From an uncultured bacterium (lineage in GTDB: Bacteria > CSSED10-310 > CAZUFC01): a stretch of 38,172 bases of DNA. The notes beneath the pieces were generated by a model. The model ran no database searches. It was not told the origin of the DNA and saw nothing but the letters and a program-made list of their open reading frames with translations. A program made the translations under genes and the position numbers. Where the stretch lies: assembly GCA_964619725.1 (NCBI GenBank), contig CAZUFC010000052.1, positions 16,301 through 54,472 on the forward strand. The letters run 5' to 3'. Numbering within the stretch: position 1 is the first letter of the stretch; each line of letters opens with the position of its first letter. Below are positions 1,528 through 38,172 of the stretch, one piece after another.

Positions 1528-1883
1528 TTTTCATAATCCAGAACTCCCCTATTCACGCCCTTCACACTGGACGGTCGAATTTAGAGAATTCAATCACCGG
1601 AGACGCCGGTGAAGTTTACGTTATTACAATGTTCACGATCGACATTTGCCCGGCGATTTTCCACAAACTCTATTCACCATTCAAATTTTTATATTGGACA
1701 GGCGCTGCCTTTTCCTCTGGTCATTGACTGATATTTCACGTTCTGCTAATGTGAAAAAAGGAGTAAAAATTAATGAAGCGCTTCCGTCGAAAATTATTGC
1801 GATTTAACGCCATATCGAAAAATGTTCTGGAAAATTCAAGCAGGAATATTATGGGTAGAAATTAATTGAGGAAGGATTCAGAA

Positions 1884-3638
1884 ATGACGATGCCGAAACT
1901 GTTCCATTTACTGGAGAACGGGGAATATGACGAGATACTGAGGTTAATGAGAGAGGGTGAGACTCCTGACGTAAGGCACGGAGACGAGAGTTTGCTGATG
2001 AGAGCAGTGATCGTCGGCGAAGTGAATTTTGTAAAAGAGCTGATAGAGCAGGGAGCTGATGCCGGATATACATCGTTGACCGTTTCGCCTTTAATTTCCG
2101 TCATATGTTCTTCTCAGCCGGAAAAGGTTGAGCTTGTAAAACTTTTGGTACAAAGCGGTGCGGCGATTAATCATCAGGACCATGAAGGAAGAAGCGCGCT
2201 TCATCATGCCGCAATGCACAGAGAACCGGATATATGCCGGATATTGATTGAAGCCTCCGCCTCGATCGACGATCCTGATTTTGAGGGGCTTACTCCCCTG
2301 ATGCATGCGCTGGCCGGGGGAATGTGGGACACTGCTTCATTGTTGCTTGACAAGGGAGCTTCACCTCATCCGGCGGATGAGAATTCTCCTGCGCCGCTTT
2401 ATTACGCCGCCTCACCTTATGAGGATGATTCGTCCGGCGTTGCGCTCCTGTTAAAGCGCGGCGCATCGCCGAACGGAAACAAAATGAACAGACCCTTGAA
2501 CGCAGCGGCTCATAGAGGACATAAAAAAATTGCAGCTTATCTTCTTGAGAAGGAGGCGAATACAGATTTAGCGGATTATGAGGGAATTACGGCTTTGCAG
2601 GCTTCGCTTATGAAAGGGGAGTCCGGCGTCGCCTCACTTCTTTTAGACCACGGCGCTTCGGCCGGAATTTCAAACGCGAAAGGAGAAACAGCGCTTCATT
2701 TAGCCGTAAAGTCCCGAAAGATAACATCAGAAGTTATTGAAATGTTGCTCAAAAAGGACCAGGACCCTTTCGTCACGGACAGCAGCGGCAAATCGGCCTA
2801 TGAACTGGCTGTAACCTCAGGGCGTCCTGAATTAGTAGTCATTTTCGACCGTTACGCCCAATCACCAAAAAAGTCAAACGACAAATCAGCCGCCAGACTC
2901 ATCAAGCTTTGCAGATCAGGAACTTACCAGGAATGTGCTGACGCGCTTCAAAATGACGTATATTCACAGGAAACGCTGACCCAGGCCTTTTACAAGGCAA
3001 AAGACCGCTCGTCTCGGGATATATGCCGCTTACTGCTGGACAACGGACTGTCTCCTGACGGCACGCCGGATAATCCTCTCATCTTTCCGGCAGTTACACG
3101 TTTACCCCCTGACTTTGAACTGGCGGGGATTATTCTGGTGAAAAATCCTGATTTTAATATTTTCGATGAAAACGGAGAATCTCCTCTGGGCTACCTCTGC
3201 GGCGGAGCGGAAACGCAAAAGGAGGTTTTCGACAGACCCTTCATTTACGACTCCGAAGACGAAAAAAGAGTGCATAACCTGATTAAATCGATCGTCAGGA
3301 AAGGAGCAGACGTTAATTTAAAAAATATGCTCGGAACGACTCCTTTTATGCATGCCGTTTACCGAAGGCCCCTGAGAACCGTTGAATTCCTGGTCGATCA
3401 CGGCGCCAATATTTTTACGGTCAATAAATATGGAGATACGCCTCTTCATTCTGCCTCCGGCCGCTATGCAGAAGGAAGGCATAATGTGGTTCAAATCCTG
3501 CTGAAGAGAGGCGCTGATCCCTTGCAAAAAAATAATCAGGGAGAAACGTCGATCGACAGGTCCGAAAAACGGGGATTCGAAGATACCGCTGAATTATTGA
3601 AGCAATTCGCACGAATCAACAGAAGACACGGTCCTTAA
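1884..3638 (+). CDS. Ankyrin repeat protein (two blocks of repeats, cytoplasmic)
   Basis: Many G-x-(T/S)-(P/A)-L-(H/M)-x-A...LL-x-x-GA repeats, e.g. GRSALHHAA, GLTPLMHAL, GETALHLAV, GDTPLHSAS. ATG 1884 follows GAGGAAGG; the ORF is open from 1866. Confidence 0.92.
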   Translation: MTMPKLFHLLENGEYDEILRLMREGETPDVRHGDESLLMRAVIVGEVNFVKELIEQGADAGYTSLTVSPLISVICSSQPEKVELVKLLVQSGAAINHQDHEGRSALHHAAMHREPDICRILIEASASIDDPDFEGLTPLMHALAGGMWDTASLLLDKGASPHPADENSPAPLYYAASPYEDDSSGVALLLKRGASPNGNKMNRPLNAAAHRGHKKIAAYLLEKEANTDLADYEGITALQASLMKGESGVASLLLDHGASAGISNAKGETALHLAVKSRKITSEVIEMLLKKDQDPFVTDSSGKSAYELAVTSGRPELVVIFDRYAQSPKKSNDKSAARLIKLCRSGTYQECADALQNDVYSQETLTQAFYKAKDRSSRDICRLLLDNGLSPDGTPDNPLIFPAVTRLPPDFELAGIILVKNPDFNIFDENGESPLGYLCGGAETQKEVFDRPFIYDSEDEKRVHNLIKSIVRKGADVNLKNMLGTTPFMHAVYRRPLRTVEFLVDHGANIFTVNKYGDTPLHSASGRYAEGRHNVVQILLKRGADPLQKNNQGETSIDRSEKRGFEDTAELLKQFARINRRHGP

Positions 3639-4738: not shown

Positions 4739-6127
4739 TCAGTCTGATGACCAGCCGAATGATACAGAGTCCCAGGCGCCCAGAATTTGGGAAAGGTTTT
4801 TTTCCAGCAGAGCGCTGTAGAAGAGTATGCCTGAGCCGGCGCTGGGTTCGTCGGGCCACTGGAATCGAAGTATTTCCATTTGGTATGAATCGATGCCCAG
4901 GAAGACGGGTTCGTAGCTGAAATCCTGTGTCCAGTCGGGATGCCAGAAATAGATGCCGTAGGCGTCTAACAGGACTACGAAGGGTTGATCGGCGTATATT
5001 GCAGGACCGGGATTGGAAAGTGTGGCGGAAAGCAGGAAAAGGTCGCCGGGCTGAAAGCTGTTTTCCGACAGATCGAGTTTGACGCCGAGCGGGTTTGGAG
5101 CGGGGGTAGCGGAATTTTCCGGCGTAGGCGTATAAGTGTATTCCGGCGTATGGGTAGGAGCTGTATCGGGTTCATAATGAAAACCCATATCCACAACGCC
5201 TGTATCGACGCCTCCGTCGGTCCTCGTCGACAGATCATCCAGGCAGATCGTGACGTCGCCTGCCGTAAAGCAGATTCCCGCAGCGTTTCCGCTGCCTGCA
5301 TCCGCACAGGGGCTGTCCTCGTCCTGTCCTGATGCCGTCTGACTCAGATAGTAGTCGCCGAAGGCGCCTTCGACGAACCTGGGATTGCCGTCTATATTGC
5401 CGGCGCCGGCATAACCGCCCTGGATATCCGAGTAGGTTATCTGCGGGTCCGAATCTTCCAGTTTCAGGTTTTGGGGCGTATTTTCCCAAACGATGACGTC
5501 CGTTAGGACCGGCGATGACAGATAAAAAGATATGCCTCCGCCGTTGCCGCTATTCGCTGAATTATCGGCTATCGTGCAGGATTGTATCGTGGGAGAGCAT
5601 TCCGAGCAATATATCCCCCCGCCGTCCATCGCAAAATTATTCGTTATCTGACAATTGGTCATCACTGAGGAAGATTTATGAAAATAAGCGCCGCCGCCTG
5701 AATACACCGCTGAATTGTTGTGTATAATGCAATTGGAAATTGTCGGCGATGATTCGAAACAATTTATGGCGCCTCCGTTGAATTGCGCCGCTGCATTTAT
5801 GATCGTGAAACCGATGATCTCCGTATTTTCGTTTTCATTACTGTCGCAAATAAAACCTGTCGATTCGCCTTCACAGTCGATTATGCAGGCTCCGGGCCCA
5901 TTGTCGGAAATCAGCAATATCTCTTTACCCCCGAAACTTACCGCACGGTTTCCCGTTCCCGTATATGTTCCGTCCTCAACAAGTACGGTATCGCCGTTTT
6001 CGGCTATTTCCACAGCAGCCTGTATAGTAACTTCATCGGTCGGCACTCGAATGATCGCTGCATTCAACCAACCGGCCGTCAAGAAAAATAAGGCTGCTGC
6101 GATTCCAAAGTATCTTAATATGTTCAT
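4739..6127 (-). CDS. Secreted right-handed parallel beta-helix (Pmp/pectin-lyase-like) protein with P/T linker and conserved C-terminal domain
   Basis: Signal peptide, TIQAAVEIAENGDTVLVEDGTY, repeated N-x-A-x-x-GG(A/G)I-x-C...SPTI-x-x-C motifs, and a TPEYTYTPTP linker. The terminal ~115 aa are homologous to the end of the 31568..34774 protein. Confidence 0.85.
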   Translation of the reverse strand: MNILRYFGIAAALFFLTAGWLNAAIIRVPTDEVTIQAAVEIAENGDTVLVEDGTYTGTGNRAVSFGGKEILLISDNGPGACIIDCEGESTGFICDSNENENTEIIGFTIINAAAQFNGGAINCFESSPTISNCIIHNNSAVYSGGGAYFHKSSSVMTNCQITNNFAMDGGGIYCSECSPTIQSCTIADNSANSGNGGGISFYLSSPVLTDVIVWENTPQNLKLEDSDPQITYSDIQGGYAGAGNIDGNPRFVEGAFGDYYLSQTASGQDEDSPCADAGSGNAAGICFTAGDVTICLDDLSTRTDGGVDTGVVDMGFHYEPDTAPTHTPEYTYTPTPENSATPAPNPLGVKLDLSENSFQPGDLFLLSATLSNPGPAIYADQPFVVLLDAYGIYFWHPDWTQDFSYEPVFLGIDSYQMEILRFQWPDEPSAGSGILFYSALLEKNLSQILGAWDSVSFGWSSD

Positions 6128-6236
6128 ATTCCGTGCCCCCTTTTTGTCGCTGAAAAATTTCACCGTACATTATTACCCTTTATGCGATGTAATGTAAAGC
6201 CGCTGCTGTTTTTGGACAAAAACCAGGTTATTGTTA

Positions 6237-7942: not shown

Positions 7943-8005
7943 TGAATGGATCGGGGGAATGCGTACGCTCGCTGAAAACAGTGAAACAGAACGTCGCATT
8001 TGATT

Positions 8006-10051
8006 ATGAAGCCTATAATAGGATTAGACATCGGTACAAGCAAAATCAGTGCAGCAGTATACCGGAACGGACGACTCAAGGTTATTCCAGATGAGGGAGG
8101 AGAAAACTCTTTTCCTATGGCGGCCGCCTTTGAGAAAAACGGACGGTTCGTCCTGGGCAACAAGGCTAAAAAGCAGCTTTTGATGAATGCTGAATACTCC
8201 ATCGTCAATTTTCTCCGTTTTTTAGCCCTGGACGAGAAAAAATTGAATGCCTGCGCCCATGAAAGGCTAATTAATTACAAACTTAGATACAATCCTGATG
8301 AAAATCGCGTGGAAGCTGCCGGAGCGGAAAAGAAATGGGTGGCTCTGACATATCTGATGGAGCGTTTGTTGGAAGAAGTTTATAAAAAAATTGAAAATGA
8401 CGTCGGCGAATATGAAGGAGAAGCAGTTTTATCCATTCCGGCAGGAATAGATTTCAACAAGAAGATATTGATCAAGGAGTGTGCGGAGAAGGCAGGGTTT
8501 AAAATAGTAGAGTATATTGAGAGTCCGTATGCTGCGGGGCTGGCGTATTGTCATAATAAACCCGAACCGCAGACGATCATCGTTTTTGATATGGGTGCGG
8601 GCAATACTAGCGTAGGCAGTTTTTCTCTGGAGAAGGGAAATGCGGTGGAGTTTATTGCAGCGGCCGGCAATGATGCATTGGGCGGTGATGACATTGACGA
8701 TTATGTCATAAAGTGGATGCTGGACAATATCAAGGAATACAAAGAAGAGCCGGGAGGATTGCCGGCTGATGCTTTACTGCGAATGCGGGAGGCAGCGGAA
8801 GAAACTAAGAGGGAGCTGTCATCAGTAAATAAAGCGGAGATAAATCTTCCTTATCTTTTTCCCGTAAAGAAGCATTTCTTGCATTTTCAGAAGTCATTAA
8901 CCAAACTTGATTTTGAATTACTGATAAAGAAACTGACAGCCGAGGCTTTGAAGACGATACAACGAGGATTAGGCGAAGGGCAGCTCATCAAGAAGGACAT
9001 TGAGACTGTGTTAATGACGGGCGGACAGAGTCGGATGCCGGTTCTGCAGGCGAGCATCGAGAATTTTTTCAAGAAGCAGCCTTATACGGGCGGAACCGCG
9101 AAAGAAATGTCAGCCATGGGAGCGGCGTTATTGGGTTTTAATATAGCATCGGGAGGGCAGGCGTTGAAGGTCAAACGCCGTTCGACGATTCTTCTGGACC
9201 GATTGCCTCCGGGCTTTATGATCAGTGATCGTTACCAGGTACTGTTTAAAATAGGCGGCGGCGGTTTCGGATATGTTTATAAGGTACGAGAGAAAAAAAC
9301 AGGAAAGGTTTTTGCTTTAAAGATACTCAAACCTGAGTATGAACGAGATGAAACGACACGCGAGAGGTTCCTGGAATCCGGGCGACGTACGCTGGGTTTT
9401 TCGCATCCGAACATCGTAACCACTGTAGATGTGATCTCTGAAGGCGCAATTGCGGGAATTCTCATGAAATATATTGAAGGAATCAGTCTCGAAAAATTCG
9501 TTGAAAAAGGGCATTTTGATGAGATGCCGCTGTATCGCCGTCTGGATATGCTCATAAGTGTTTTACGAGCGTTAATAGTTCTGAGAAACAGAAACATTTT
9601 TCACGGCGATCTGAAGCCTGAAAACGTGTTCGTCAATCATGAGCATGTGCCCATGCTGTTTGATTTCGAGCTTTTCCGCTTGAAATCGGAAAACGACGGT
9701 CAACGGATACAGGTTACCGGAACGCCTCGATATATGGCTCCCGAACACATTTCAGGAGAGAATGTTTTTGGCGAATGGAGCGAGATATATTCTCTGGGGT
9801 TAATCATGTACCGATTGTTTGCCGGTCGGTTTCCGAAAAAAGCGGACAACCCGAAAAAGGATTATCTGATCTTCGACTTCGGCTTTTCAAAAGCGGAAGA
9901 CCCGCAGAACGTTAATCCGTCCATTCCTGACGAGCTGGCAGGCATCATAAAAAAGAGCATACGTCGCAAACGCGACCAGCGTTTTCAGACTTTTGAGGAA
10001 CTGATGGAAGCGCTGGAGGCTCTGCAGAAGGATACAGCCATACAGGATTGA
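8006..10051 (+). CDS. Hsp70/DnaK-like nucleotide-binding domain fused to a Hanks-type Ser/Thr protein kinase
   Basis: N-terminal IIGLDIGTS, VFDMGAG, LGGDDID, AEETKRELS and TGGQSRMP (Hsp70 NBD). C-terminal IGGGGFGYVY, FALK, HGDLKPEN, DFE and GTPRYMAPE (kinase). There is no Hsp70 substrate-binding domain. Confidence 0.9.
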   Translation: MKPIIGLDIGTSKISAAVYRNGRLKVIPDEGGENSFPMAAAFEKNGRFVLGNKAKKQLLMNAEYSIVNFLRFLALDEKKLNACAHERLINYKLRYNPDENRVEAAGAEKKWVALTYLMERLLEEVYKKIENDVGEYEGEAVLSIPAGIDFNKKILIKECAEKAGFKIVEYIESPYAAGLAYCHNKPEPQTIIVFDMGAGNTSVGSFSLEKGNAVEFIAAAGNDALGGDDIDDYVIKWMLDNIKEYKEEPGGLPADALLRMREAAEETKRELSSVNKAEINLPYLFPVKKHFLHFQKSLTKLDFELLIKKLTAEALKTIQRGLGEGQLIKKDIETVLMTGGQSRMPVLQASIENFFKKQPYTGGTAKEMSAMGAALLGFNIASGGQALKVKRRSTILLDRLPPGFMISDRYQVLFKIGGGGFGYVYKVREKKTGKVFALKILKPEYERDETTRERFLESGRRTLGFSHPNIVTTVDVISEGAIAGILMKYIEGISLEKFVEKGHFDEMPLYRRLDMLISVLRALIVLRNRNIFHGDLKPENVFVNHEHVPMLFDFELFRLKSENDGQRIQVTGTPRYMAPEHISGENVFGEWSEIYSLGLIMYRLFAGRFPKKADNPKKDYLIFDFGFSKAEDPQNVNPSIPDELAGIIKKSIRRKRDQRFQTFEELMEALEALQKDTAIQD

Positions 10052-12789: not shown

Positions 12790-13719
12790 ATGAAGCAAAA
12801 GGGCATATTGATATTGGCGCTTGCATTGGGCGTCATTGCAGTCATACTTGTACAGGTATACATTCGAGACATTGAGAAGAAGCACGAGGTTGAGGATACG
12901 GTATCGGTTCTGGTTGCGGCGAAGAACATACCGGCCGGAACAGCGGTGACAGGGACGCAGATAACGACGGAGAAGGTGCCTCGCCAGTTTTTAAATCCCA
13001 ATGCGGTATTGCCGAAGGAGCTGGAATTGATATTGAATCAGACGACGTCTATTGATCTTCAGAAGGGTCAACAGATATTATGGACGGATTTCGTTTCTGA
13101 AAAGGAGACGGGACTGGCGACGGTGATAAAGGAAGGCGAACGGGCGTTGACTTTGGACGTGAACGATCGTACGGGAGTATCCGGATTATTGAAGCCGAAC
13201 GATCACGTGGACATAATCGGAACTTTCCAGGTTCCGAAAGAGGTAAAGATAGACGCCGGCGATCTGAGAAAATTTCAAGGCGACTTTTCTTATCAATTTG
13301 AGCAGGTGACGGTAACTTTGCTTCAAAACGTGACGGTGCTGGCGGTGGGAAAGTATATAGGTACGGAAGATTTCGGTCCGGGAGCGATGTTTCCTGCCGC
13401 ATCGGGAATGAGAGGTTCATTAGGCATGGACGCGGCAGCTCAAACCGCGGCCAAACGTCTGCAGGACAAAATGTCGTATCGAACAGTCACTGTGCTGGTT
13501 ACGCCGTTAGAGGCCGAATTGCTCGTGCATGCCATGCTTACGGGAGAAATTACTCTTGCTCTTCGTAATCCTGAGGACCTGATGACCGAACTCAAACTGC
13601 CCAACATCAAGTTCACTGACGTAGTGAAGTCCGAATTTGTGGAAGAGATTCAGCAGAAGAGGACTGAGCGAACCATTGAGATTTACAAGGGTCCGGGTCA
13701 AAAGAAGAGAAGAAGATAA
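12790..13719 (+). CDS. cpaB: Flp/Tad pilus assembly protein CpaB (RcpC)
   Basis: N-terminal TM helix, SAF domain (VLVAAKNIPAGT), GERALTLDV...GVSGLLKPNDHVDII, LLQNVTVLAV, VTVLVTPLEAELL and ITLALRNPED. Confidence 0.93.
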   Translation: MKQKGILILALALGVIAVILVQVYIRDIEKKHEVEDTVSVLVAAKNIPAGTAVTGTQITTEKVPRQFLNPNAVLPKELELILNQTTSIDLQKGQQILWTDFVSEKETGLATVIKEGERALTLDVNDRTGVSGLLKPNDHVDIIGTFQVPKEVKIDAGDLRKFQGDFSYQFEQVTVTLLQNVTVLAVGKYIGTEDFGPGAMFPAASGMRGSLGMDAAAQTAAKRLQDKMSYRTVTVLVTPLEAELLVHAMLTGEITLALRNPEDLMTELKLPNIKFTDVVKSEFVEEIQQKRTERTIEIYKGPGQKKRRR

Positions 13720-13795
13720 GTCATTATTTCATGAAGAAGCTTACAGGCGAATGAACAGAGGATTAATAAACTATTTTCGTCGGGAGGTTAAAGAC

Positions 13796-15103
13796 ATGGT
13801 TGGAAAGGGGACTTCTGTGAGAAGAACTGCATTAACAGCGACGGCCATAGCCGTCATGGGAATCGTTTTCTGCTGTTTTACGGCATCGGCGCAGGAAATG
13901 ATCACTCTGATAGTCGGCGAACAGCAGACTCTTGATGCCCGCGACACAGTAAGAGTAGCCGTAGGCGACCCCAACATAGCGGACGTGAAAGTGATAGCCG
14001 GGGGCCGGGAATTGCTTATAACGGGAATCAGTTCCGGGACCACCACCCTAACTATGTGGAACAATCGCAACGAGAAGACCACGTTGCAGATAAAAGTCAT
14101 CGCCAGGGACCCCAAGGAAGTGGCCCGTGAAGTTAGAGAACTGCTGGGCGACGTGGAAGGCATCTCGATCGTGGTAGTGGGGGAAAAGGTCGTTCTGGAC
14201 GGAGAAGTCTTCAGACAGAAGGACTTGGACAGGGCTGACAAAGTCGTTCAGATGTATGAACCCCAGTTGGTTTCTCTGTTGGAATACAACAAGGCTTATC
14301 TTGAAATGAAAAGAATGATCCAGGTGGAATTCAAGTTTTATGAAATTGATAAGAACAAAGCCACCCGTTTCGGCATCAATATGTCCGACCTTCTGAATCC
14401 TCAATCTCCTCTGATCAGCGCTCAGTATTCCATCAATTCCCAGTCCAATGAAATGACCGACAATTTGAATTCCGACAACAACATGGATACCGAAACCGAC
14501 ACAACCAGTCTGAACGTAAGCGTAACCAATGACTTCAATCCTCTCAGGATCGACTCGGAAGACGATAAAATAAGGCTGATGGAGGAACATCAGGCTGTGA
14601 CCAGAAGCGGCGAAAAGGTTTATTTCGTAGCGGGCGGCGAAGTGCCTATCGCGGTAGAGGGTACGGCCGGCTCTGCAGGTTATGTGGAATGGAAACAATA
14701 CGGGACCATAATCAATGCACAACCTGAAATTGACCGGATCAACAATATAATCCTGACTATTTCAGTCGAATCCAGTCAGTTGGATTGGGCTAATGCGGTC
14801 AGCGGATATCCGGCCATTAAATTGAACCGCAGCGACACTGTGGTCAATATGAAATCAGGACAAACCCTGTTGATGGGCGGAGTCTTCAGTACGGGTTCTT
14901 CAAGAAAATCAGACGGCATACCCGGTTTCAGCAAGATTCCTCTTCTCGGTTTCCTTTTCGGCGCCAAAGAATATACGAAAAACAGGCATGACGGCGTTCT
15001 GTTCATCACCCCCAGCATAATCAATCCCGTGGATCAACCCGGACAGAACCCCAGAATTCAGGCCGTCATCGACAGATTCGAAGAAAAGGACCTGATGCTC
15101 TGA
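13796..15103 (+). CDS. cpaC: Flp/Tad pilus secretin CpaC (RcpA)
   Basis: Signal peptide, RVAVGDPNIADV...GTTTLTMW N-domain, and secretin domain (FVAGGEVPI, GQTLLMGG, IPGFSKIPLLGFLFG, LFITPSII). ATG 13796 follows GGGAGG. Confidence 0.92.
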   Translation: MVGKGTSVRRTALTATAIAVMGIVFCCFTASAQEMITLIVGEQQTLDARDTVRVAVGDPNIADVKVIAGGRELLITGISSGTTTLTMWNNRNEKTTLQIKVIARDPKEVAREVRELLGDVEGISIVVVGEKVVLDGEVFRQKDLDRADKVVQMYEPQLVSLLEYNKAYLEMKRMIQVEFKFYEIDKNKATRFGINMSDLLNPQSPLISAQYSINSQSNEMTDNLNSDNNMDTETDTTSLNVSVTNDFNPLRIDSEDDKIRLMEEHQAVTRSGEKVYFVAGGEVPIAVEGTAGSAGYVEWKQYGTIINAQPEIDRINNIILTISVESSQLDWANAVSGYPAIKLNRSDTVVNMKSGQTLLMGGVFSTGSSRKSDGIPGFSKIPLLGFLFGAKEYTKNRHDGVLFITPSIINPVDQPGQNPRIQAVIDRFEEKDLML

Positions 15104-20006: not shown

Positions 20007-22286
20007 ATGGAGAGAAAAGAAACGATTTATCTGTTTTTGCTGATAGTATTGTTCAACGGATCGAATGTTTTAATGACCAGAGCGGTTGCCGGTTCTGTCT
20101 GGAGGGGCGGCAGCGGAGGATTCGATGCGCTTGCGGAGCGGGCGCCGCAATGGGCTGAGGATTCTGGAGAATTGCGTCGATACGGCAAGCGAATGCTGCG
20201 TGATCAGATCAATTTAATGGTGATAAGAACGACGGAAGCGGAAGAATCGGTCATCCGCGCATTGGACGAGGCCGGTTATGCTTACGAGGAGCATTATGAG
20301 CCTGACGACTGGACGGGATTGGATTTTTCATCATTTGACGTCGTATTAATCGCAATGCATGATGGCGGGATAGACCAGGATGACATTTCGTCAATTCGAA
20401 ACGAAGTGATTGATGCGGGCAAAAGAGTCATTTTCATCGGGGGATGTTCCACTCAGGATTTCGTAAACGCCGTCAATACGTCATTGCTTGGAGTCAGCAC
20501 GATCAGCTATGACTGGCATGCTTCGCCGGCGCCTCATTTCATCATAACGAATCAGGATCATCCCCTGGTTTCGGGTCTCGAATCGCCCCGCACCTTCAAC
20601 AATGCCTGGGCCTCGTCATATTGCATACGTATAACGGAACCGGAGCTGATTCAGGCGGCGGAGAACGGTGAAGGGGCTCCTGTTCTGATATACAAAGGGG
20701 ACTATGGAACGGGAGGCGATCTGATCTGGATCACGAACGATCCTGATGAAATCGTATGGGAGAACCAGCAGGATTTCGACGTATTGAAAAGGCTTATCGG
20801 CAACAGCCTGCAATTCGGGAATCAGGCTCCTCTATTGCTGCTGACGACTACTTCTTTAGAAGAATCAGTCGAAGACGGCTTGCAGAATTTAGGATTCGTT
20901 TACACGAAAGTTTTCGCAGAGGATTGGACGTTGACGGATTTTGAGGAGTACGAGGTAGTGATTGCGGCCATGGATGGAGGGGAAATCAGTGAAGCAAGCG
21001 TTCAGGCGGTAAGAGAGGATGTGATAGAACAGGGAAAGCGGCTTATTTTTATCGGCGGGACGTCTGTCGAAAGTTTCGTATTGGGGGTGAACGAATATTT
21101 AACGCTCGTGGATACTCAGAATTATAGCTGGAGCCTGCCGCCTGCAGATCAATTCCGTCTGACGAATGCTTCCCATTTTTTATCGGTGGACCTTCCGAAC
21201 ATATATAATTTCGAAAATTCCTTCGCCGGTATGTATCAAATAAGAATCAGGCAATATAATGTTCAGGAGGCTGCCAGAAACGGACATAACGAGATTTGTT
21301 TATATTATCAGTTGGGATTCTCCGGAGGCGGCGATTTTGTCTGGTTCGTCAATTCGCCTTTGAGTTATTATTGGGAAAATGAGGAGGACCGGGATATTTT
21401 AAAGCAGGTTCTGAAGAATTCGTTGTCGTGTTTGAACACAGGCGGAGGTTGCGACATAGCGCTTGTTTCCGATGAAGATCAGTTGAACACGTTGGAGCCT
21501 TTGCTGGACAATATGGGGATTACTTACGACCGATATAATGATAATGGCAATGAGACATTTACGGCCCAACCTGATGTGATGTCGAATTATGAAGTATGTA
21601 TCTGGTATCAGTATGACCGCGGAATATCAACGGATGAAAAAAACGTCATGGACGCCTGGGTCATGAACGGCGGACGTTTGCTGGTTACGGGTTTCGACAG
21701 TCTGGGAAGTCCGGATGATCTCTTGATGGCGCAAATCGTAAGGTCTGAGGAAACAGGCGACGGTCCGTTTGATCTGGCTTATACGGTTATTACATCAACT
21801 CATCCCATCATTAACGGGCCCTACGGTCAGTGGTCGGTTTCAACGGAGCTGAGAGCCGGACATTCCGACCATGATAAGGCGGTCCCGGACATTGCTGAAG
21901 GCGCCGTATCAGTAGCGGATTTCAGCGACGGGACCTCAAAAATAATGGCGACGGACTCAATCAGTCTCGGCGGTAAAGTAGTCTACTGGAACGGGAATTA
22001 CGAATTAAAGGATTGGACCAATTCCGGAACTCAGCCCGACCAGATTCAACTTCTCAAAAATACCCTGTTCTGGTTATGCCAGGCCCCGGAAACGCCTCTG
22101 CCTAGCGCCACCCCCACCTGGACCGTCACCAGCACGCCGGAGCCGACTTCCACACCCACGATTACGCCCACTCCTTTTCCTATTCCGTCGCTCAAAATCC
22201 CTGGATTCAGCATACTAATACTGCTCACAAGCCTTTTAATGCTCACGGGAACCTTGCGAAAGAACAGGAAAGAAAATGAGACTTGA
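20007..22286 (+). CDS. Secreted protein with three tandem GATase1-like (flavodoxin-like) domains, P/T linker and IPTL-CTERM-like anchor
   Basis: Signal peptide, two clearly homologous ~200-aa repeats (GKR(V/L)IFIGG, GGD..W..N.P...WEN..D.D.LK....NSL) and a third diverged one, a TPTWTVTSTPEPTSTPTITPTP linker, then IPSL, a TM helix and RKNRK. Confidence 0.8.
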   Translation: MERKETIYLFLLIVLFNGSNVLMTRAVAGSVWRGGSGGFDALAERAPQWAEDSGELRRYGKRMLRDQINLMVIRTTEAEESVIRALDEAGYAYEEHYEPDDWTGLDFSSFDVVLIAMHDGGIDQDDISSIRNEVIDAGKRVIFIGGCSTQDFVNAVNTSLLGVSTISYDWHASPAPHFIITNQDHPLVSGLESPRTFNNAWASSYCIRITEPELIQAAENGEGAPVLIYKGDYGTGGDLIWITNDPDEIVWENQQDFDVLKRLIGNSLQFGNQAPLLLLTTTSLEESVEDGLQNLGFVYTKVFAEDWTLTDFEEYEVVIAAMDGGEISEASVQAVREDVIEQGKRLIFIGGTSVESFVLGVNEYLTLVDTQNYSWSLPPADQFRLTNASHFLSVDLPNIYNFENSFAGMYQIRIRQYNVQEAARNGHNEICLYYQLGFSGGGDFVWFVNSPLSYYWENEEDRDILKQVLKNSLSCLNTGGGCDIALVSDEDQLNTLEPLLDNMGITYDRYNDNGNETFTAQPDVMSNYEVCIWYQYDRGISTDEKNVMDAWVMNGGRLLVTGFDSLGSPDDLLMAQIVRSEETGDGPFDLAYTVITSTHPIINGPYGQWSVSTELRAGHSDHDKAVPDIAEGAVSVADFSDGTSKIMATDSISLGGKVVYWNGNYELKDWTNSGTQPDQIQLLKNTLFWLCQAPETPLPSATPTWTVTSTPEPTSTPTITPTPFPIPSLKIPGFSILILLTSLLMLTGTLRKNRKENET

Positions 22287-31445: not shown

Positions 31446-31567
31446 GAAGCATGACCTCCCGATTGTATCCTTCTAATTTTTATCGGAATATGATGCTCAT
31501 GTCAATTGGTCCTTTACTTCAAACCTTCCATGAAATAAAATCAAGGAGGCGGAAAGGAGCTGCATCC

Positions 31568-34500
31568 ATGTTAATGAAATACAAGAAGATAATACTGGCG
31601 GCGATACCCGTGCTGATTTTATCGGCAGCGGTCCCGGAATGTTTCGGTGAGGCAGCCTGGTTATGGCACGGCGGCAATATTGATCCCCGTTATCCCACGC
31701 AGTCTCATGATACGTTGATACGAGTAAAGATCGGTTATCAGTATTTTATAGATAATGTCGCGATTTACCTGACTTACGACGGCACAGAACCCCAGGGCGC
31801 TTACGGGGAACCTTTTATCGGAGAGGTGATACCGATGAGCTGGGATTATACGGAGTGGGATCAGGATGCAGAGTTATGGGCTGACTGGTGGAGCGGCATA
31901 GTCCCCGCTGCTGCCGGTCATGAAATCGGAACGGCAGTCAATTATAAAATAGGCGCCTGGCACAGCGGAGGGGGAGCGGAAAGATTTGCGGACAATTATG
32001 CGGATAATTCATACGAAGCAGACGTGTTTTCCTTCAGAATATGCGGAGAAGTTCAGCAAGCTTTGACGGAAGAAGAGGTCATTATAGAGGGAACGGTTTA
32101 TATTGAGGGAGTAACGGACGAGCCGGGACCTGCCGCCGGACTTGATGTGGAGATATGGACGAATTACGGCGAGGAGGGCGTGACGGACTGGCGCGGGATT
32201 CAGATGTCCTATTGCGAGGATGTGGGGGAATCCGAAAGATATTCGGTTGAACTGACGCCCGGTACCGCAGGCATTTTTAAATACCTGGTCCGATATCGGC
32301 TGGACCTGGGTGAATGGCAGTACCAGGGCGATCCCGATAATGAATTATCCATGTGTCGCCTTATCGTCAATCCTGTCTGGCTCAAAGACAAGGTTTTTTA
32401 TGAAGTGTTTCCGCGGGTGCATAACGCAGAGGATGTAAACGGCGACGGATATCTTTCCAATGATGAGTTCGGCGGTTTCAAAAACGTTCTGAACGACCTG
32501 GACCGGTTGGAGGAACTGGGTGTCGGCGTTTTATGGCTTATGCCCATTCATCCTTTGAGCACGAATCCCGAACACATTAAAAGCACGGACGGGATGTTCG
32601 GCAGTCCCTATGCGCCGAAAGATTACCTGGCCGTGAATCCGGATTACGGCACAGAAGAGGATTTGCATGAGCTCGTGGATGCTGCGCATGCACGCGAGAT
32701 GAAAGTTTTCACAGGTTTCGTTCCCAATCACCTTTCGCCTGACAATGTTCTTCTTAATCCCTTCAATCCGCCGGAAAACGGCGGTTATCATCCGGAGTGG
32801 TTCGAGCAGGATGAATTCGGCGACCCCCGTCCCGACCTGCCCGAATGGTCGGATACGGTAGCGTTAAATTATGATTGCAATGATCAGGAGAATATGAGGG
32901 CATTTGTGGTTTCCGCGCTGGCTCATTGGCTGGATGAATTCGATATAGACGGTTATCGCTGCGATATGGCCTATTTTCAACCCCTGGATTTCTGGACCGA
33001 TGCTTTCGAAACCTTGCGGGAAAACAGACCCGATTTTGCCTTTCTGGCTGAAGCCTATGATCTGGAATACGATCTGGAAAGAGCCGGTTTCGGAGCGGTA
33101 TACGATCATACTTTCTACCGCTCAGTGTTTCACGAGTTGCGAAACGGTTCCATGGATGCCGATGGTTTAAGAAGCAGACTCTTGAATATGGTCGATAATC
33201 ACGCCCGGGGATTCCTCCCCTTCCGATATATCGATAATCACGACGAAGAAAGGGCAGCAGCCGCCTTCGGAGACGCCAACAAGCCGGTTACCGCCTTGAT
33301 CATGACCATGAGGGGCGCTCCCATGCTCTACTCCGGCCAGGAAGCGGCATTAACGGAAAGAATTCCGTTATTCAGGGGATGGAACGACGTGGAACTTTAT
33401 CCCTACCTTGATTTTGAAAACGATCCGGACTTTACCGAATGGATGAAAACGCTTATCCATTTCAGAAACGGGAATCCTGCCCTGAGACGAGGTGAAGAAT
33501 ACCTGTTGCCGTCATCATCGAATCACATTTTCGCCCTGCTGCGCAGGTTCCAGAATAAAAGCGTGCTTGTCGGATGCAACCTGGACGTCTCTAACGGTTT
33601 GCCCCGTTCAGGAAACGTCCAGATTCCCGAACAATTCAATCTCGAAACCGGCATTGTATACTCGCTGCAGGATATATTTACTCTGGAAAAAGATTACGTC
33701 CTGGGCCAAGAATTCAACTCTTATTATTTCCAATTGCCCGAAAACGGGGTGCAGGTCATGGATATCAATGAACTCTGCGAATGGGGGGGCGACGTAAACG
33801 ATGACGGAGCGGTTGACGATAAAGATGATATGCTGATCCTGCAGCAGGTTTGCGGCTTGTTCGAGCTTGAAGAAACGGAAAACTGTCGCGGGGATTATAA
33901 CGTCTCGGGCGAGGCTGATATTGCCGATATCATTGAAAAATATGAGCCGGCTGGTACAGCCCCGGAAAATGTTGAATTAATGATGAACGATGTCCAGGCG
34001 ATGCCCGGTGAAACTGTTACCGTTATTGTGACATTGGATTCCGCAGGCGTTGCCGGCGGAGTCGTTCAAATTGAGGCTTCGCCGGCGGATATCGAACCGG
34101 TTTCTTGGCTGCCGGGTGAAACTTTGACGGAAGCTGTCGGCGCTTCCGGCATCGATCCCTGTCCGCCGGATAGAAACTGCAATACCCCTGAACCTGCCGC
34201 CCTTTCCGTAGCGCAGTTCGTTCATTCCCCTACGGACGGGGAACAACAAGACTGGTTCCATATGCAATGGGCTGTTCCGACAGATGCTATTCCGGGGACG
34301 GAATTTATACTCGACGGAGAAACCGTTATGTATGGCCCGAACGGGAATCCCATTCCTTCGGCTCACATCGGGCCGGGGAGCATCCTGGTTACGGGAGGTC
34401 CGAATTGCACTGAAACGGGCGTTACGCTGTCCATGCCCGCCGAATATTTCAGTCCCGGAGACGATTGCCGGCTGGATGCATTTATTTGCAATATGGAAGG

Positions 34501-34774
34501 CCAAACCCTGGAAAACTGCATCTTTTTCTGCCTGCTTGATGTTTACGGCGCTTACTGGTTTTATCCCTCTTGGTCTGCCGGCCTGGACGGCGTTCTGCTG
34601 GATACCCTGCCGCCCGGTCAGACCGATATGAACCTTATCTCGCCTTTCCAATGGCCCGAAATTACAGACTCTGCGGAAGGCTTGCACTTTTACGGCGCCC
34701 TGGTCTTGCCGAACCTTTCTGACTTGATTGGAAAACTTGGAATCTGGGAATTCGGTTACGGCGCCGACGATTAG
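31568..34774 (+). CDS. Secreted GH13 alpha-amylase-family enzyme with N-terminal Ig/CBM-like domains, dockerin, cohesin-like domain and conserved C-terminal domain
   Basis: Signal peptide, LWLMPIHP, GSPYAPKDY, FVPNH, DGYRCDMA (nucleophile D), LAEAY (acid/base E), YIDNHDE and GAPMLYSGQE; dockerin GDVNDDGAVD...GDYNVSGEADIAD. ATG 31568 follows AAGGAG. Confidence 0.92.
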   Translation: MLMKYKKIILAAIPVLILSAAVPECFGEAAWLWHGGNIDPRYPTQSHDTLIRVKIGYQYFIDNVAIYLTYDGTEPQGAYGEPFIGEVIPMSWDYTEWDQDAELWADWWSGIVPAAAGHEIGTAVNYKIGAWHSGGGAERFADNYADNSYEADVFSFRICGEVQQALTEEEVIIEGTVYIEGVTDEPGPAAGLDVEIWTNYGEEGVTDWRGIQMSYCEDVGESERYSVELTPGTAGIFKYLVRYRLDLGEWQYQGDPDNELSMCRLIVNPVWLKDKVFYEVFPRVHNAEDVNGDGYLSNDEFGGFKNVLNDLDRLEELGVGVLWLMPIHPLSTNPEHIKSTDGMFGSPYAPKDYLAVNPDYGTEEDLHELVDAAHAREMKVFTGFVPNHLSPDNVLLNPFNPPENGGYHPEWFEQDEFGDPRPDLPEWSDTVALNYDCNDQENMRAFVVSALAHWLDEFDIDGYRCDMAYFQPLDFWTDAFETLRENRPDFAFLAEAYDLEYDLERAGFGAVYDHTFYRSVFHELRNGSMDADGLRSRLLNMVDNHARGFLPFRYIDNHDEERAAAAFGDANKPVTALIMTMRGAPMLYSGQEAALTERIPLFRGWNDVELYPYLDFENDPDFTEWMKTLIHFRNGNPALRRGEEYLLPSSSNHIFALLRRFQNKSVLVGCNLDVSNGLPRSGNVQIPEQFNLETGIVYSLQDIFTLEKDYVLGQEFNSYYFQLPENGVQVMDINELCEWGGDVNDDGAVDDKDDMLILQQVCGLFELEETENCRGDYNVSGEADIADIIEKYEPAGTAPENVELMMNDVQAMPGETVTVIVTLDSAGVAGGVVQIEASPADIEPVSWLPGETLTEAVGASGIDPCPPDRNCNTPEPAALSVAQFVHSPTDGEQQDWFHMQWAVPTDAIPGTEFILDGETVMYGPNGNPIPSAHIGPGSILVTGGPNCTETGVTLSMPAEYFSPGDDCRLDAFICNMEGQTLENCIFFCLLDVYGAYWFYPSWSAGLDGVLLDTLPPGQTDMNLISPFQWPEITDSAEGLHFYGALVLPNLSDLIGKLGIWEFGYGADD

Positions 34775-36397: not shown

Positions 36398-38172
<1,775 letters not shown>

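Follow-up and report, generated by a model that had tools for sequence, protein, structure and literature searches.

A stretch of 38,172 nucleotides from an uncultured bacterium of the phylum CSSED10-310 (hereafter, the window; contig CAZUFC010000052.1 of assembly GCA_964619725.1) encodes two otherwise unrelated secreted proteins, one beta-helix-like and the other a glycoside hydrolase family 13 (GH13) enzyme, that end in the same domain of about 112 residues. The two copies belong to a real, large and unnamed domain family, for which a folded C-terminal address domain is the most fitting description. We tentatively propose that the domain serves as a lineage-specific address or docking tag that retains Sec-exported cargo in one clade of CSSED10-310, a reading to which we give somewhat less than an even chance. 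The strongest argument for an address tag, as opposed to a mere accessory domain, is that the domain alternates on related cargo with a recognized class of sorting signal.

The sequence-only reading of the window had noticed the shared tail and estimated about 30% identity from a manual alignment. A BLASTP search with the tail of the beta-helix protein (copy 1) against the entire GH13 protein confirmed both points, returning a single significant alignment at the C-terminus of the enzyme (copy 2) with 38 identities in 126 positions (30%). Because this match, with an E value of 4e-14, is confined to the C-terminus of the GH13 protein, the similarity is real and not due to chance. The identity between the two copies is 36% when they are aligned with MAFFT. 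Copy 1 and its stop codon (positions 4739–5086) close a minus-strand open reading frame (ORF; 4739..6163, 474 residues), whereas the plus strand across the same interval is closed by many stops. The translated tail begins with GVKLDL and ends with SFGWSSD. Copy 2 closes a plus-strand ORF (31451..34774, 1107 residues). Both copies scored highly against the genome-wide profile described below (E 4.2e-34 for copy 1, over model positions 1–111, and 5.8e-34 for copy 2).

The two proteins carry unrelated cargo upstream of the domain and share a signal peptide-like start, which had been read from the sequence in both and which in the GH13 protein is putatively MLMKYKKIILAAIPVLILSAAVPECFG, from residue 40. 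For the beta-helix label given earlier to the first protein, direct matches are weak (NosD, E 0.0022, and para_beta_helix, E 0.0087, in NCBIfam), though the cargo of paralogous proteins matches the Pfam family Beta_helix strongly (E 1e-27 to 1e-35). A search for related loci with this protein found only relatives of residues 15–349 in other phyla, all without this tail. In the GH13 protein, the signal peptide is followed by an alpha-amylase catalytic domain (Pfam Alpha-amylase, E 1.4e-26; NCBIfam alpha-amylase MalA, E 1.5e-40) and then by a dockerin-like and a cohesin-like stretch, the last two recognized by eye. The linker rich in proline and threonine (Pro/Thr) that had been described ahead of the domain is present before copy 1 (residues 331–359) and absent before copy 2, where the preceding residues are ...GGPNCTETG.

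The two window copies seeded a profile hidden Markov model (HMM) that we iterated against all six frames, translated from stop to stop, of the 9.17-Mb genome assembly (344 contigs, 90.9% complete, 6.5% contamination). The profile converged by round 3 on 227 domains in 226 ORFs. At E<1e-10 there were 218 ORFs on 122 of the 344 contigs, a spread that contamination cannot explain. Copies counted as near full length, with 90 or more of the 111 profile positions, numbered 216, and 201 of them (93%) end within 5 residues of the stop codon; another 10 end 6–35 residues before it and 5 lie elsewhere. The family thus has many paralogues in this genome, and the earlier description of the domain as strictly terminal holds for the great majority of copies and not for all. 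Pairwise identity is low (median of 28% among 192 copies; 5th–95th percentile, 19–41%). The positions N25, L40, W52, F75, W77, P78 and F89 are nonetheless conserved at 84–97%, and an aromatic run at positions 46–49 and a PGD turn at positions 13–15 are conserved as well. Judged from their sequences, the copies are an old, constrained family.

The architecture seen in the first window protein is common in the family. The 30 residues upstream of the domain contain 19% proline and 19% threonine, compared to 6% and 7.5%, respectively, in the remaining cargo. Of 166 copies that aligned cleanly, 116 reach a combined proline and threonine content of 40% or more in the 25 positions preceding the domain. 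The boundary itself is semi-conserved, with glycine at position -1 in 53% and leucine at position -2 in 40%. We scored signal peptides in ORFs of at least 300 residues with a crude rule that required a lysine or arginine in the n-region, an uncharged hydrophobic core, a small-x-small cleavage site and no later membrane helix (a looser first rule was dropped for its 44% background). Signal peptide-like starts without another membrane helix were found in 162 of 202 tagged ORFs versus 681 of 3473 background ORFs, as anticipated from the two window proteins. By the same crude rule, tagged proteins make up approximately one fifth of the long ORFs that carry a signal peptide.

The cargo is as diverse as the tail is uniform. 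Single-linkage clustering of the cargo of 205 proteins yielded 90 clusters, the largest with 67 members and 65 of them singletons. We surveyed 40 of the 218 proteins with Pfam (39 chosen across the clusters and one special case) and identified subtilases, beta-helix proteins, BNR/sortilin repeats, AhpC/TSA peroxiredoxins, FG-GAP repeats, carbohydrate-binding module (CBM) family 96, lamin-tail (LTD) domains, clostripain, Kelch repeats, phospholipase D, PKD domains, DUF4397, Reg_prop and formylglycine-generating enzyme (FGE)-sulfatase domains. The cargo of 16 of the 40 proteins matched no family at E<=1e-5.

This diversity bears on whether the domain is an ordinary accessory module with an immunoglobulin (Ig)-like fold, used for substrate or carbohydrate binding or as a spacer or stabilizer, that has no sorting role and was spread by whole-gene duplication. 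Clear whole-gene duplicates do exist. For example, the tail of copy 1 is 62% identical to that of another beta-helix protein in the genome, and the 67-member cargo cluster is of the same kind. The rare non-terminal copies and a predicted fold that is generic and closest to accessory domains of glycoside hydrolases, to CARDB and to a CBM would also suit such a module. However, about 90 unrelated cargo clusters, among them proteases, a peroxiredoxin, phospholipase D, Kelch and FG-GAP proteins, make one shared substrate unlikely. A spacer or stabilizer would not normally be limited to the very end of the protein in 93% of cases, specific residues are kept at 28% overall identity, and homologous cargo bears either the domain or a bona fide sorting tail. 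We therefore regard an accessory role as improbable. Of the 218 tagged genes, 89 lie within 5 kb of another tagged gene.

Sequence searches did not connect the domain to any named family. Neither window tail matched a Pfam or NCBIfam model at E<=1, a result that the sequence-only reading had named as support, and 42 diverse copies scanned singly hit only four Pfam families and one NCBIfam family, each with one member at E values of 0.06–0.35. A profile search of all PDB sequences returned only spurious LRP matches (E 0.017 or worse), a word-indexed protein search with the tail of the first protein found nothing besides that protein itself, and no relative was present in the viral contigs scanned with the tail. 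Matches of the domain in the ESM Atlas were to unnamed clusters only. None of the findings that had been named as contrary to a new tag (a match to a known domain, frequent internal or cytoplasmic occurrence, or a family of only two copies) emerged from these analyses.

AlphaFold2 modeled the domain from the 42-copy alignment as an all-beta sandwich of eight strands with high confidence (predicted local distance difference test, pLDDT, 96.1; predicted template modeling score, pTM, 0.86). Foldseek matched this model to RhoGDI, CARDB and fibronectin type III (Fn3)-like domains of GH3 enzymes at template modeling (TM) scores of 0.5–0.57. The top matches with VIA-align were to domain N of GH66 dextranases (5axg, Z 10.6, root-mean-square deviation (rmsd) 2.6 over 100 aligned residues; 3wnk, Z 9.6; 3vmn, Z 9.5), followed by RbmA (4be5, Z 9.0) and CARDB (3idu and 2kl6, Z 8.9). 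For CARDB (PF07705), the structural match (rmsd 2.7, 95 aligned residues, TMq 0.57) is within the generic Ig-like range and there was no HMM match at E<=1. These proteins share the fold class of the domain, although they have only 10–16% sequence identity and no HMM relation to it and are not lineage-wide terminal tags. There is also a weak likeness in fold to a porphyran CBM (8wae, Z 7.7) and to the carbohydrate-binding domain of Wzt (6o14, Z 7.5); no CBM model matched any of the 42 copies. According to the model, then, the domain is a lineage-specific, independently folding Ig-like/E-set sandwich of approximately 112 residues, and this fold names no function.

The domain is restricted to part of one phylum, as the sequence-only reading had anticipated. 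We searched 14 species genomes of CSSED10-310 and 17 genomes of other phyla with the 42-copy profile and found the domain in 11 of the former, with 59 to at least 150 matches each. It was not found in three genomes of the phylum (G001, G002 and G004; 96, 87 and 93% complete, respectively), and the 17 genomes of other phyla gave one weak match (E 5e-4). Among 1.84 billion representative proteins, 2,570 matched at E<=1e-3 and 2,208 at 1e-10, and in 147 of the 150 best representatives the match ends within 6 residues of the end of the protein. Two of ten relatives had NCBI names, "hypothetical protein" and "formylglycine-generating enzyme family protein", both from "candidate division CSSED10-310". 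In an RpoB tree of 16 rows (G002 and G011 had no RpoB match and G008 had a partial one), ten tagged genomes form one clade (SH-like approximate likelihood-ratio test, SH-aLRT, 99) in which this genome branches deepest, and the untagged G001 and G004 form the sister group (support 91). The simplest history is one origin of the domain at the base of the tagged clade.

The phylum has been described as predicted Gram-negative and possibly motile heterotrophs (PMC8248873), and PMC11382960 gives it the additional name Candidatus Getofiota. PMC8248873, which is devoted to the phylum, describes no such domain, and we found no other paper that does. This genome also has a second, very divergent RpoB-like frame (G000:C78:14707-17577, minus strand; a 1,903-residue ORF), which scored about 250 bits compared to 1,740 for the main copy on contig C180. 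It could be contamination, given the 6.5% contamination of the assembly, or a foreign element.

We also identified a second, helix-type tag in the same genome. A script scan found approximately 210 ORFs that end in a Pro/Thr linker, a (P)[IV]P[AS] motif (38 PIPA, 21 PVPA, 11 PIPS and others), a hydrophobic helix and a cluster of lysines or arginines. None of them carries the beta-sandwich domain. The helix tails matched no NCBIfam CTERM model above cut-off and gave only sub-threshold matches to Loki- and Heimdall-CTERM. All 14 genomes of the phylum have a short exosortase-family ORF that matches XrtH (TIGR04177). The score in this genome (76 bits) is below the 86-bit cut-off, which the ORFs of G002 and G004 exceed, and the XrtH-like gene lies approximately 500 bp from a helix-tailed gene. 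The helix tail is probably the substrate signal of an XrtH-like short exosortase.

The two tags occupy the same slot. Like the tails of the XrtH/IPTL-CTERM type, the domain is terminal, follows a Pro/Thr linker and sits on homologous cargo: for 68 of the 210 helix-tailed proteins, a homologue of the cargo (E<=1e-10, 150 or more residues) is also found attached to the domain. The tags themselves are very different. The XrtH type is a short motif, membrane helix and basic cluster, presumably processed by the XrtH-like enzyme that all 14 genomes have, and the domain is a soluble, all-beta module of one clade. In the untagged species, 4 of the 6 complete frames of subtilase homologues end in a hydrophobic helix and arginine cluster, and one such homologue has a long Pro/Thr linker before the helix. 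The domain would be a soluble-domain alternative to the membrane-helix tail. The tags also differ in the size of the proteins that bear them. A length of 2,100 residues is surpassed by 28 of the 210 helix-tailed ORFs, which reach 12,092 residues, and by none of the 218 domain-tagged ones (maximum, 2,016). The genome has 49 ORFs longer than 2,100 residues; 28 of these are helix-tailed, and every tagged giant is among them.

Under the docking reading, the cargo would cross the inner membrane via its N-terminal signal peptide. The tag, held on a flexible Pro/Thr tether and usually at the extreme C-terminus, would then dock to a clade-specific component of the envelope or matrix, a glycan or a receptor, so that the cell surface would hold and display the cargo instead of letting it go. 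The layout of linker and module and the conserved aromatics resemble, by analogy, those of binding modules, and the closest folds (GH66 domain N, RbmA, CARDB and the porphyran CBM) are Ig-like domains with accessory or binding roles. The copies that are not terminal (G000:C153:3829-6570, minus strand; G000:C40:22837-25440, minus strand; G000:C179:522-2942, plus strand; and protein P0018) are informative in this respect. Two proteins have an intact domain directly after the signal peptide and the cargo behind it (an FGE-sulfatase and a metallophosphatase-like domain), and in others, both here and in the genome of a relative, the domain lies between FGE-sulfatase domains. Copies at N-terminal and internal positions are easier to reconcile with a docking module than with an export signal that has to be C-terminal. 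A separate oddity is P0006, a 440-residue protein of a relative in which the C-terminal half of the domain comes first, followed by a linker, the N-terminal half and a full copy at the end; the arrangement is either scrambled or circularly permuted, or an assembly artefact.

Several observations weigh against docking. The searches yielded no partner, ligand or reader for the domain, and the gene neighborhoods of tagged genes show no convincingly enriched non-tagged family. The best neighbor was a group of collagen/S74 proteins (10 seen versus 4.5 expected; p 0.007, uncorrected for 11 tests). The fold matches are generic, the best Z score being 10.6 when models without a clear match typically reach 7–8 at best, and the surface exposure of the conserved aromatics was deduced from strand alternation only. 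Since the origin of the domain in a single clade is a single event, arguments from co-distribution carry little weight. Furthermore, the 93% bias toward the extreme C-terminus is what an export signal like the type IX secretion system (T9SS) C-terminal domain (CTD) shows and is not strictly needed for docking, and the 2,016-residue maximum is explained no worse by folded cargo that passes through a pore than by docking. The sequence-only reading had gone further and suggested the tag of an undescribed export or attachment pathway. The shared terminal domain at its core is upheld, with the paralogues, signal peptides and restricted distribution reported above; the step to a pathway is conjecture, no reading machinery having been found.

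The last of these objections raise the possibility of an export signal that works like the T9SS CTD, in which the folded tag would be read in the periplasm by an outer-membrane translocon, either novel or a secretin-based type II channel, and perhaps cleaved. The analogy is close. The T9SS CTD of Bacteroidota and their allies also folds into an Ig-like beta-sandwich, sits at the extreme C-terminus of a large and diverse set of Sec-exported proteins, is restricted by lineage and has a similar cargo spectrum (subtilases, beta-helix, FG-GAP, PKD and glycosidases). In this genome, too, hundreds of diverse Sec-dependent cargoes carry the tag and almost all of the copies are terminal. The semi-conserved glycine and leucine before the domain could be a processing site, and the limit of 2,016 residues on tagged proteins, compared to 12,092 on helix-tailed ones, is consistent with a pore that admits folded cargo. 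The required compartment and channels are also available: Omp85 and GspD secretins were found above cut-off in all 14 genomes of the phylum, which indicates that the lineage is diderm and has type II-like channels.

The known system itself was not detected by homology. The sequence-only reading had noted that the motif resembles neither the T9SS CTD nor S-layer homology (SLH) or autotransporter patterns, and the tail indeed had no Pfam or NCBIfam match to any of these at E<=1. The domain was rejected as a T9SS type A CTD (TIGR04183/PF18962) on the lack of an HMM match, on an hhalign comparison of the 42 copies with nine canonical T9SS tails (probability 0.46%, E 0.13) and on the lack of tails and of PorV. 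Whole-genome searches with the tail model TIGR04183 gave no match in this genome and in 11 others; matches appeared only in the two most fragmented assemblies (1 in G012 and 10 in G013), on contigs of 2.7–6.4 kb, and the nine tails of the hhalign comparison were drawn from these. PorV (NF033710) was above cut-off in 0 of 5 genomes, with no match here and E values of about 5e-4 in G001 and G005 only. SprA/Sov (TIGR04189) and GldM/PorM (TIGR03517) were likewise detected in 0 of 5 genomes each, by models that no control genome matched either. The domain is also longer than the T9SS CTD (about 112 residues and 8 predicted strands versus a 72-position HMM and aligned tails of 80–92 residues), is sometimes N-terminal or internal, and its cargo tops out near 2,000 residues. 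As a side observation, G013 (69% complete) has its ten canonical T9SS type A tails on short contigs (L093-L101) beside 91 copies of the new domain; these T9SS tails are probably binned contamination, with true coexistence of the two tags as the less likely alternative.

A type II route fares no better in the comparison among species, because type II secretion system (T2SS) secretins are equally present in the three untagged species and do not separate these from the tagged ones; no clade-specific channel is identified for this reason. The intact N-terminal and internal copies also speak against an export signal, which we hold to be possible and rather unlikely. Other known tag systems were rejected as well. 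The predicted sandwich of 112 residues and 8 strands would be too small for the 12-strand translocator barrel of an autotransporter, and neither the 42 copies nor the window proteins matched Pfam autotransporter or SLH models at E<=1. Tripartite sorting signals (PEP-CTERM, IPTL-CTERM, LPXTG) do not apply to a domain that is all-beta and has no hydrophobic helix. The PEP-CTERM model TIGR02595 had matches in 0 of 5 genomes, and in none of the control genomes, and this genome had no match to the IPTL-CTERM model.

A special case of docking is suggested by cellulosomes, in which the domain would substitute for dockerins and plug into the cohesins of cell-anchored scaffolds. Dockerins are small calcium-binding helical modules with a duplicated repeat. 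Like the domain, they usually form the C-terminal module of numerous enzymes in a single organism, to which a flexible linker joins them, and cohesin-bearing, cell-anchored proteins are present here as in cellulosomal systems. We counted 31 cohesin matches in this genome, spread over 23 ORFs of which 15 are helix-tailed and none is domain-tagged, and only 11 dockerin matches; G003 and G008 each combine one dockerin match with 150 or more tagged proteins. However, the predicted structure of the domain is an all-beta sandwich, unlike the helical dockerin, and none of the 42 copies matched the Pfam dockerin model (PF00404). Furthermore, the numbers of cohesins and dockerins in the genomes of the phylum do not vary with those of the domain: the three untagged species carry 1–11 cohesins, family f6 has 21–55 dockerins, and G007 combines 108 domain matches with a single cohesin match. 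Cohesins in general were rejected as receptors on these grounds, and a dockerin substitute, a sub-case of the docking reading proposed by analogy, is given little probability.

One cohesin protein was considered separately as a reader. It is a lipoprotein secretin of 847 residues encoded outside the window (G000:C12:72037-74577, plus strand; L148:8038-10578), with a lipobox, TPR repeats, Secretin_N and Secretin domains, an acidic linker and a C-terminal cohesin, and no named secretin subfamily scored above cut-off. Its operon also encodes an extracytoplasmic function (ECF) sigma/anti-sigma pair, a TPR protein and two TldD/PmbA peptidases. We found no paper that treats secretin, cohesin domain and type II secretion together. 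The searches recovered orthologues of the fusion from 9 of the 11 tagged genomes and from none of the 3 untagged ones. The fusion is not favored as the reader, being missing from G007.

To our knowledge, type IX secretion is the only system for which folded C-terminal tags on hundreds of exported proteins have been characterized in detail. In the present case, an unrelated domain takes the architectural part of the T9SS CTD in a phylum without a detected T9SS and does so beside a helix tag with which it swaps cargo. Somewhat doubtfully, the folded tag may be read by machinery that evolved once at the base of the clade, which would make it an undescribed sorting pathway of a diderm phylum that lacks T9SS. 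If so, this machinery would carry folded proteins of about 2,000 residues at most onto the outer membrane or through it, alongside an older XrtH-type anchor route for giant proteins, and would represent an independent invention of the T9SS logic. These ideas are testable and concern the organization of the surface proteome in a little-known diderm lineage and the repeated evolution of address domains. The domain profile would, in addition, annotate the predicted secretome of the clade, with its thousands of "hypothetical" tails, and mark the clade in metagenomes.

Table 1. Positions in the window of the two tagged proteins, their parts and other features.
Feature	Position	Strand	Basis
C-terminal domain copy 1, 115 residues (360–474 of the beta-helix protein)	4742..5086	minus	Translation, BLASTP and genome profile
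Pro/Thr linker EPDTAPTHTPEYTYTPTPENSATPAPNPL, 29 residues, between cargo and domain	5087..5173	minus	Sequence
Cargo of protein 1, parallel beta-helix-like	5174..6055	minus	Weak NCBIfam matches; paralogue matches
Probable ATG (codon 13 of the ORF) and Sec-type signal peptide, MNILRYFGIAAALFFLTAGWLNA/AIIRVP	6059..6127	minus	Read from sequence
GH13 protein (protein 2) from probable start M40 to domain boundary	31568..34417	plus	Translation
C-terminal domain copy 2, 118 residues (990–1107 of the GH13 protein)	34418..34771	plus	BLASTP and profile
Helix-tagged exported protein, 759 residues, with Pro/Thr linker, IPS/IPG motif and tail ...TPTPFPIPSLKIPGFSILILLTSLLMLTGTLRKNRKENET	20007..22286	plus	Script scan
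Ca-loop-like repeats of the GH13 protein	33788-34150	plus	By eye
Ankyrin-repeat protein	1866-3638	plus	
ATPase-kinase fusion	8000-10051	plus	
RcpC/CpaB protein and secretin	12790-15103	plus	
Collagen/S74 protein	36398-38161	minus	

The dockerin-like stretch of the GH13 protein (residues ~780–900) consists of two Asp-rich, Ca-loop-like repeats, GDVNDDGAVDDKD and GDYNVSGEADIAD, and is followed by the cohesin-like stretch just ahead of the terminal domain (Table 1). Pfam detects neither stretch, and the layout of a dockerin directly followed by a cohesin within one protein was seen again in relatives. At the end of the window, a protein with collagen triple-helix repeats terminates in a Peptidase_S74 chaperone domain, as in phage tail fibers, and is one of 22 paralogues in the genome. 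The window also encodes an RcpC/CpaB protein that adjoins a Tad-type secretin as part of a Flp-pilus assembly locus. A 683-residue fusion joins an Hsp70/actin-fold ATPase (E 5.5e-64) to a Ser/Thr protein kinase domain (E 2.2e-39), and a 590-residue protein consists almost entirely of ankyrin repeats (Ank_2, E 1.4e-61), which is unusual for a free-living sediment bacterium.

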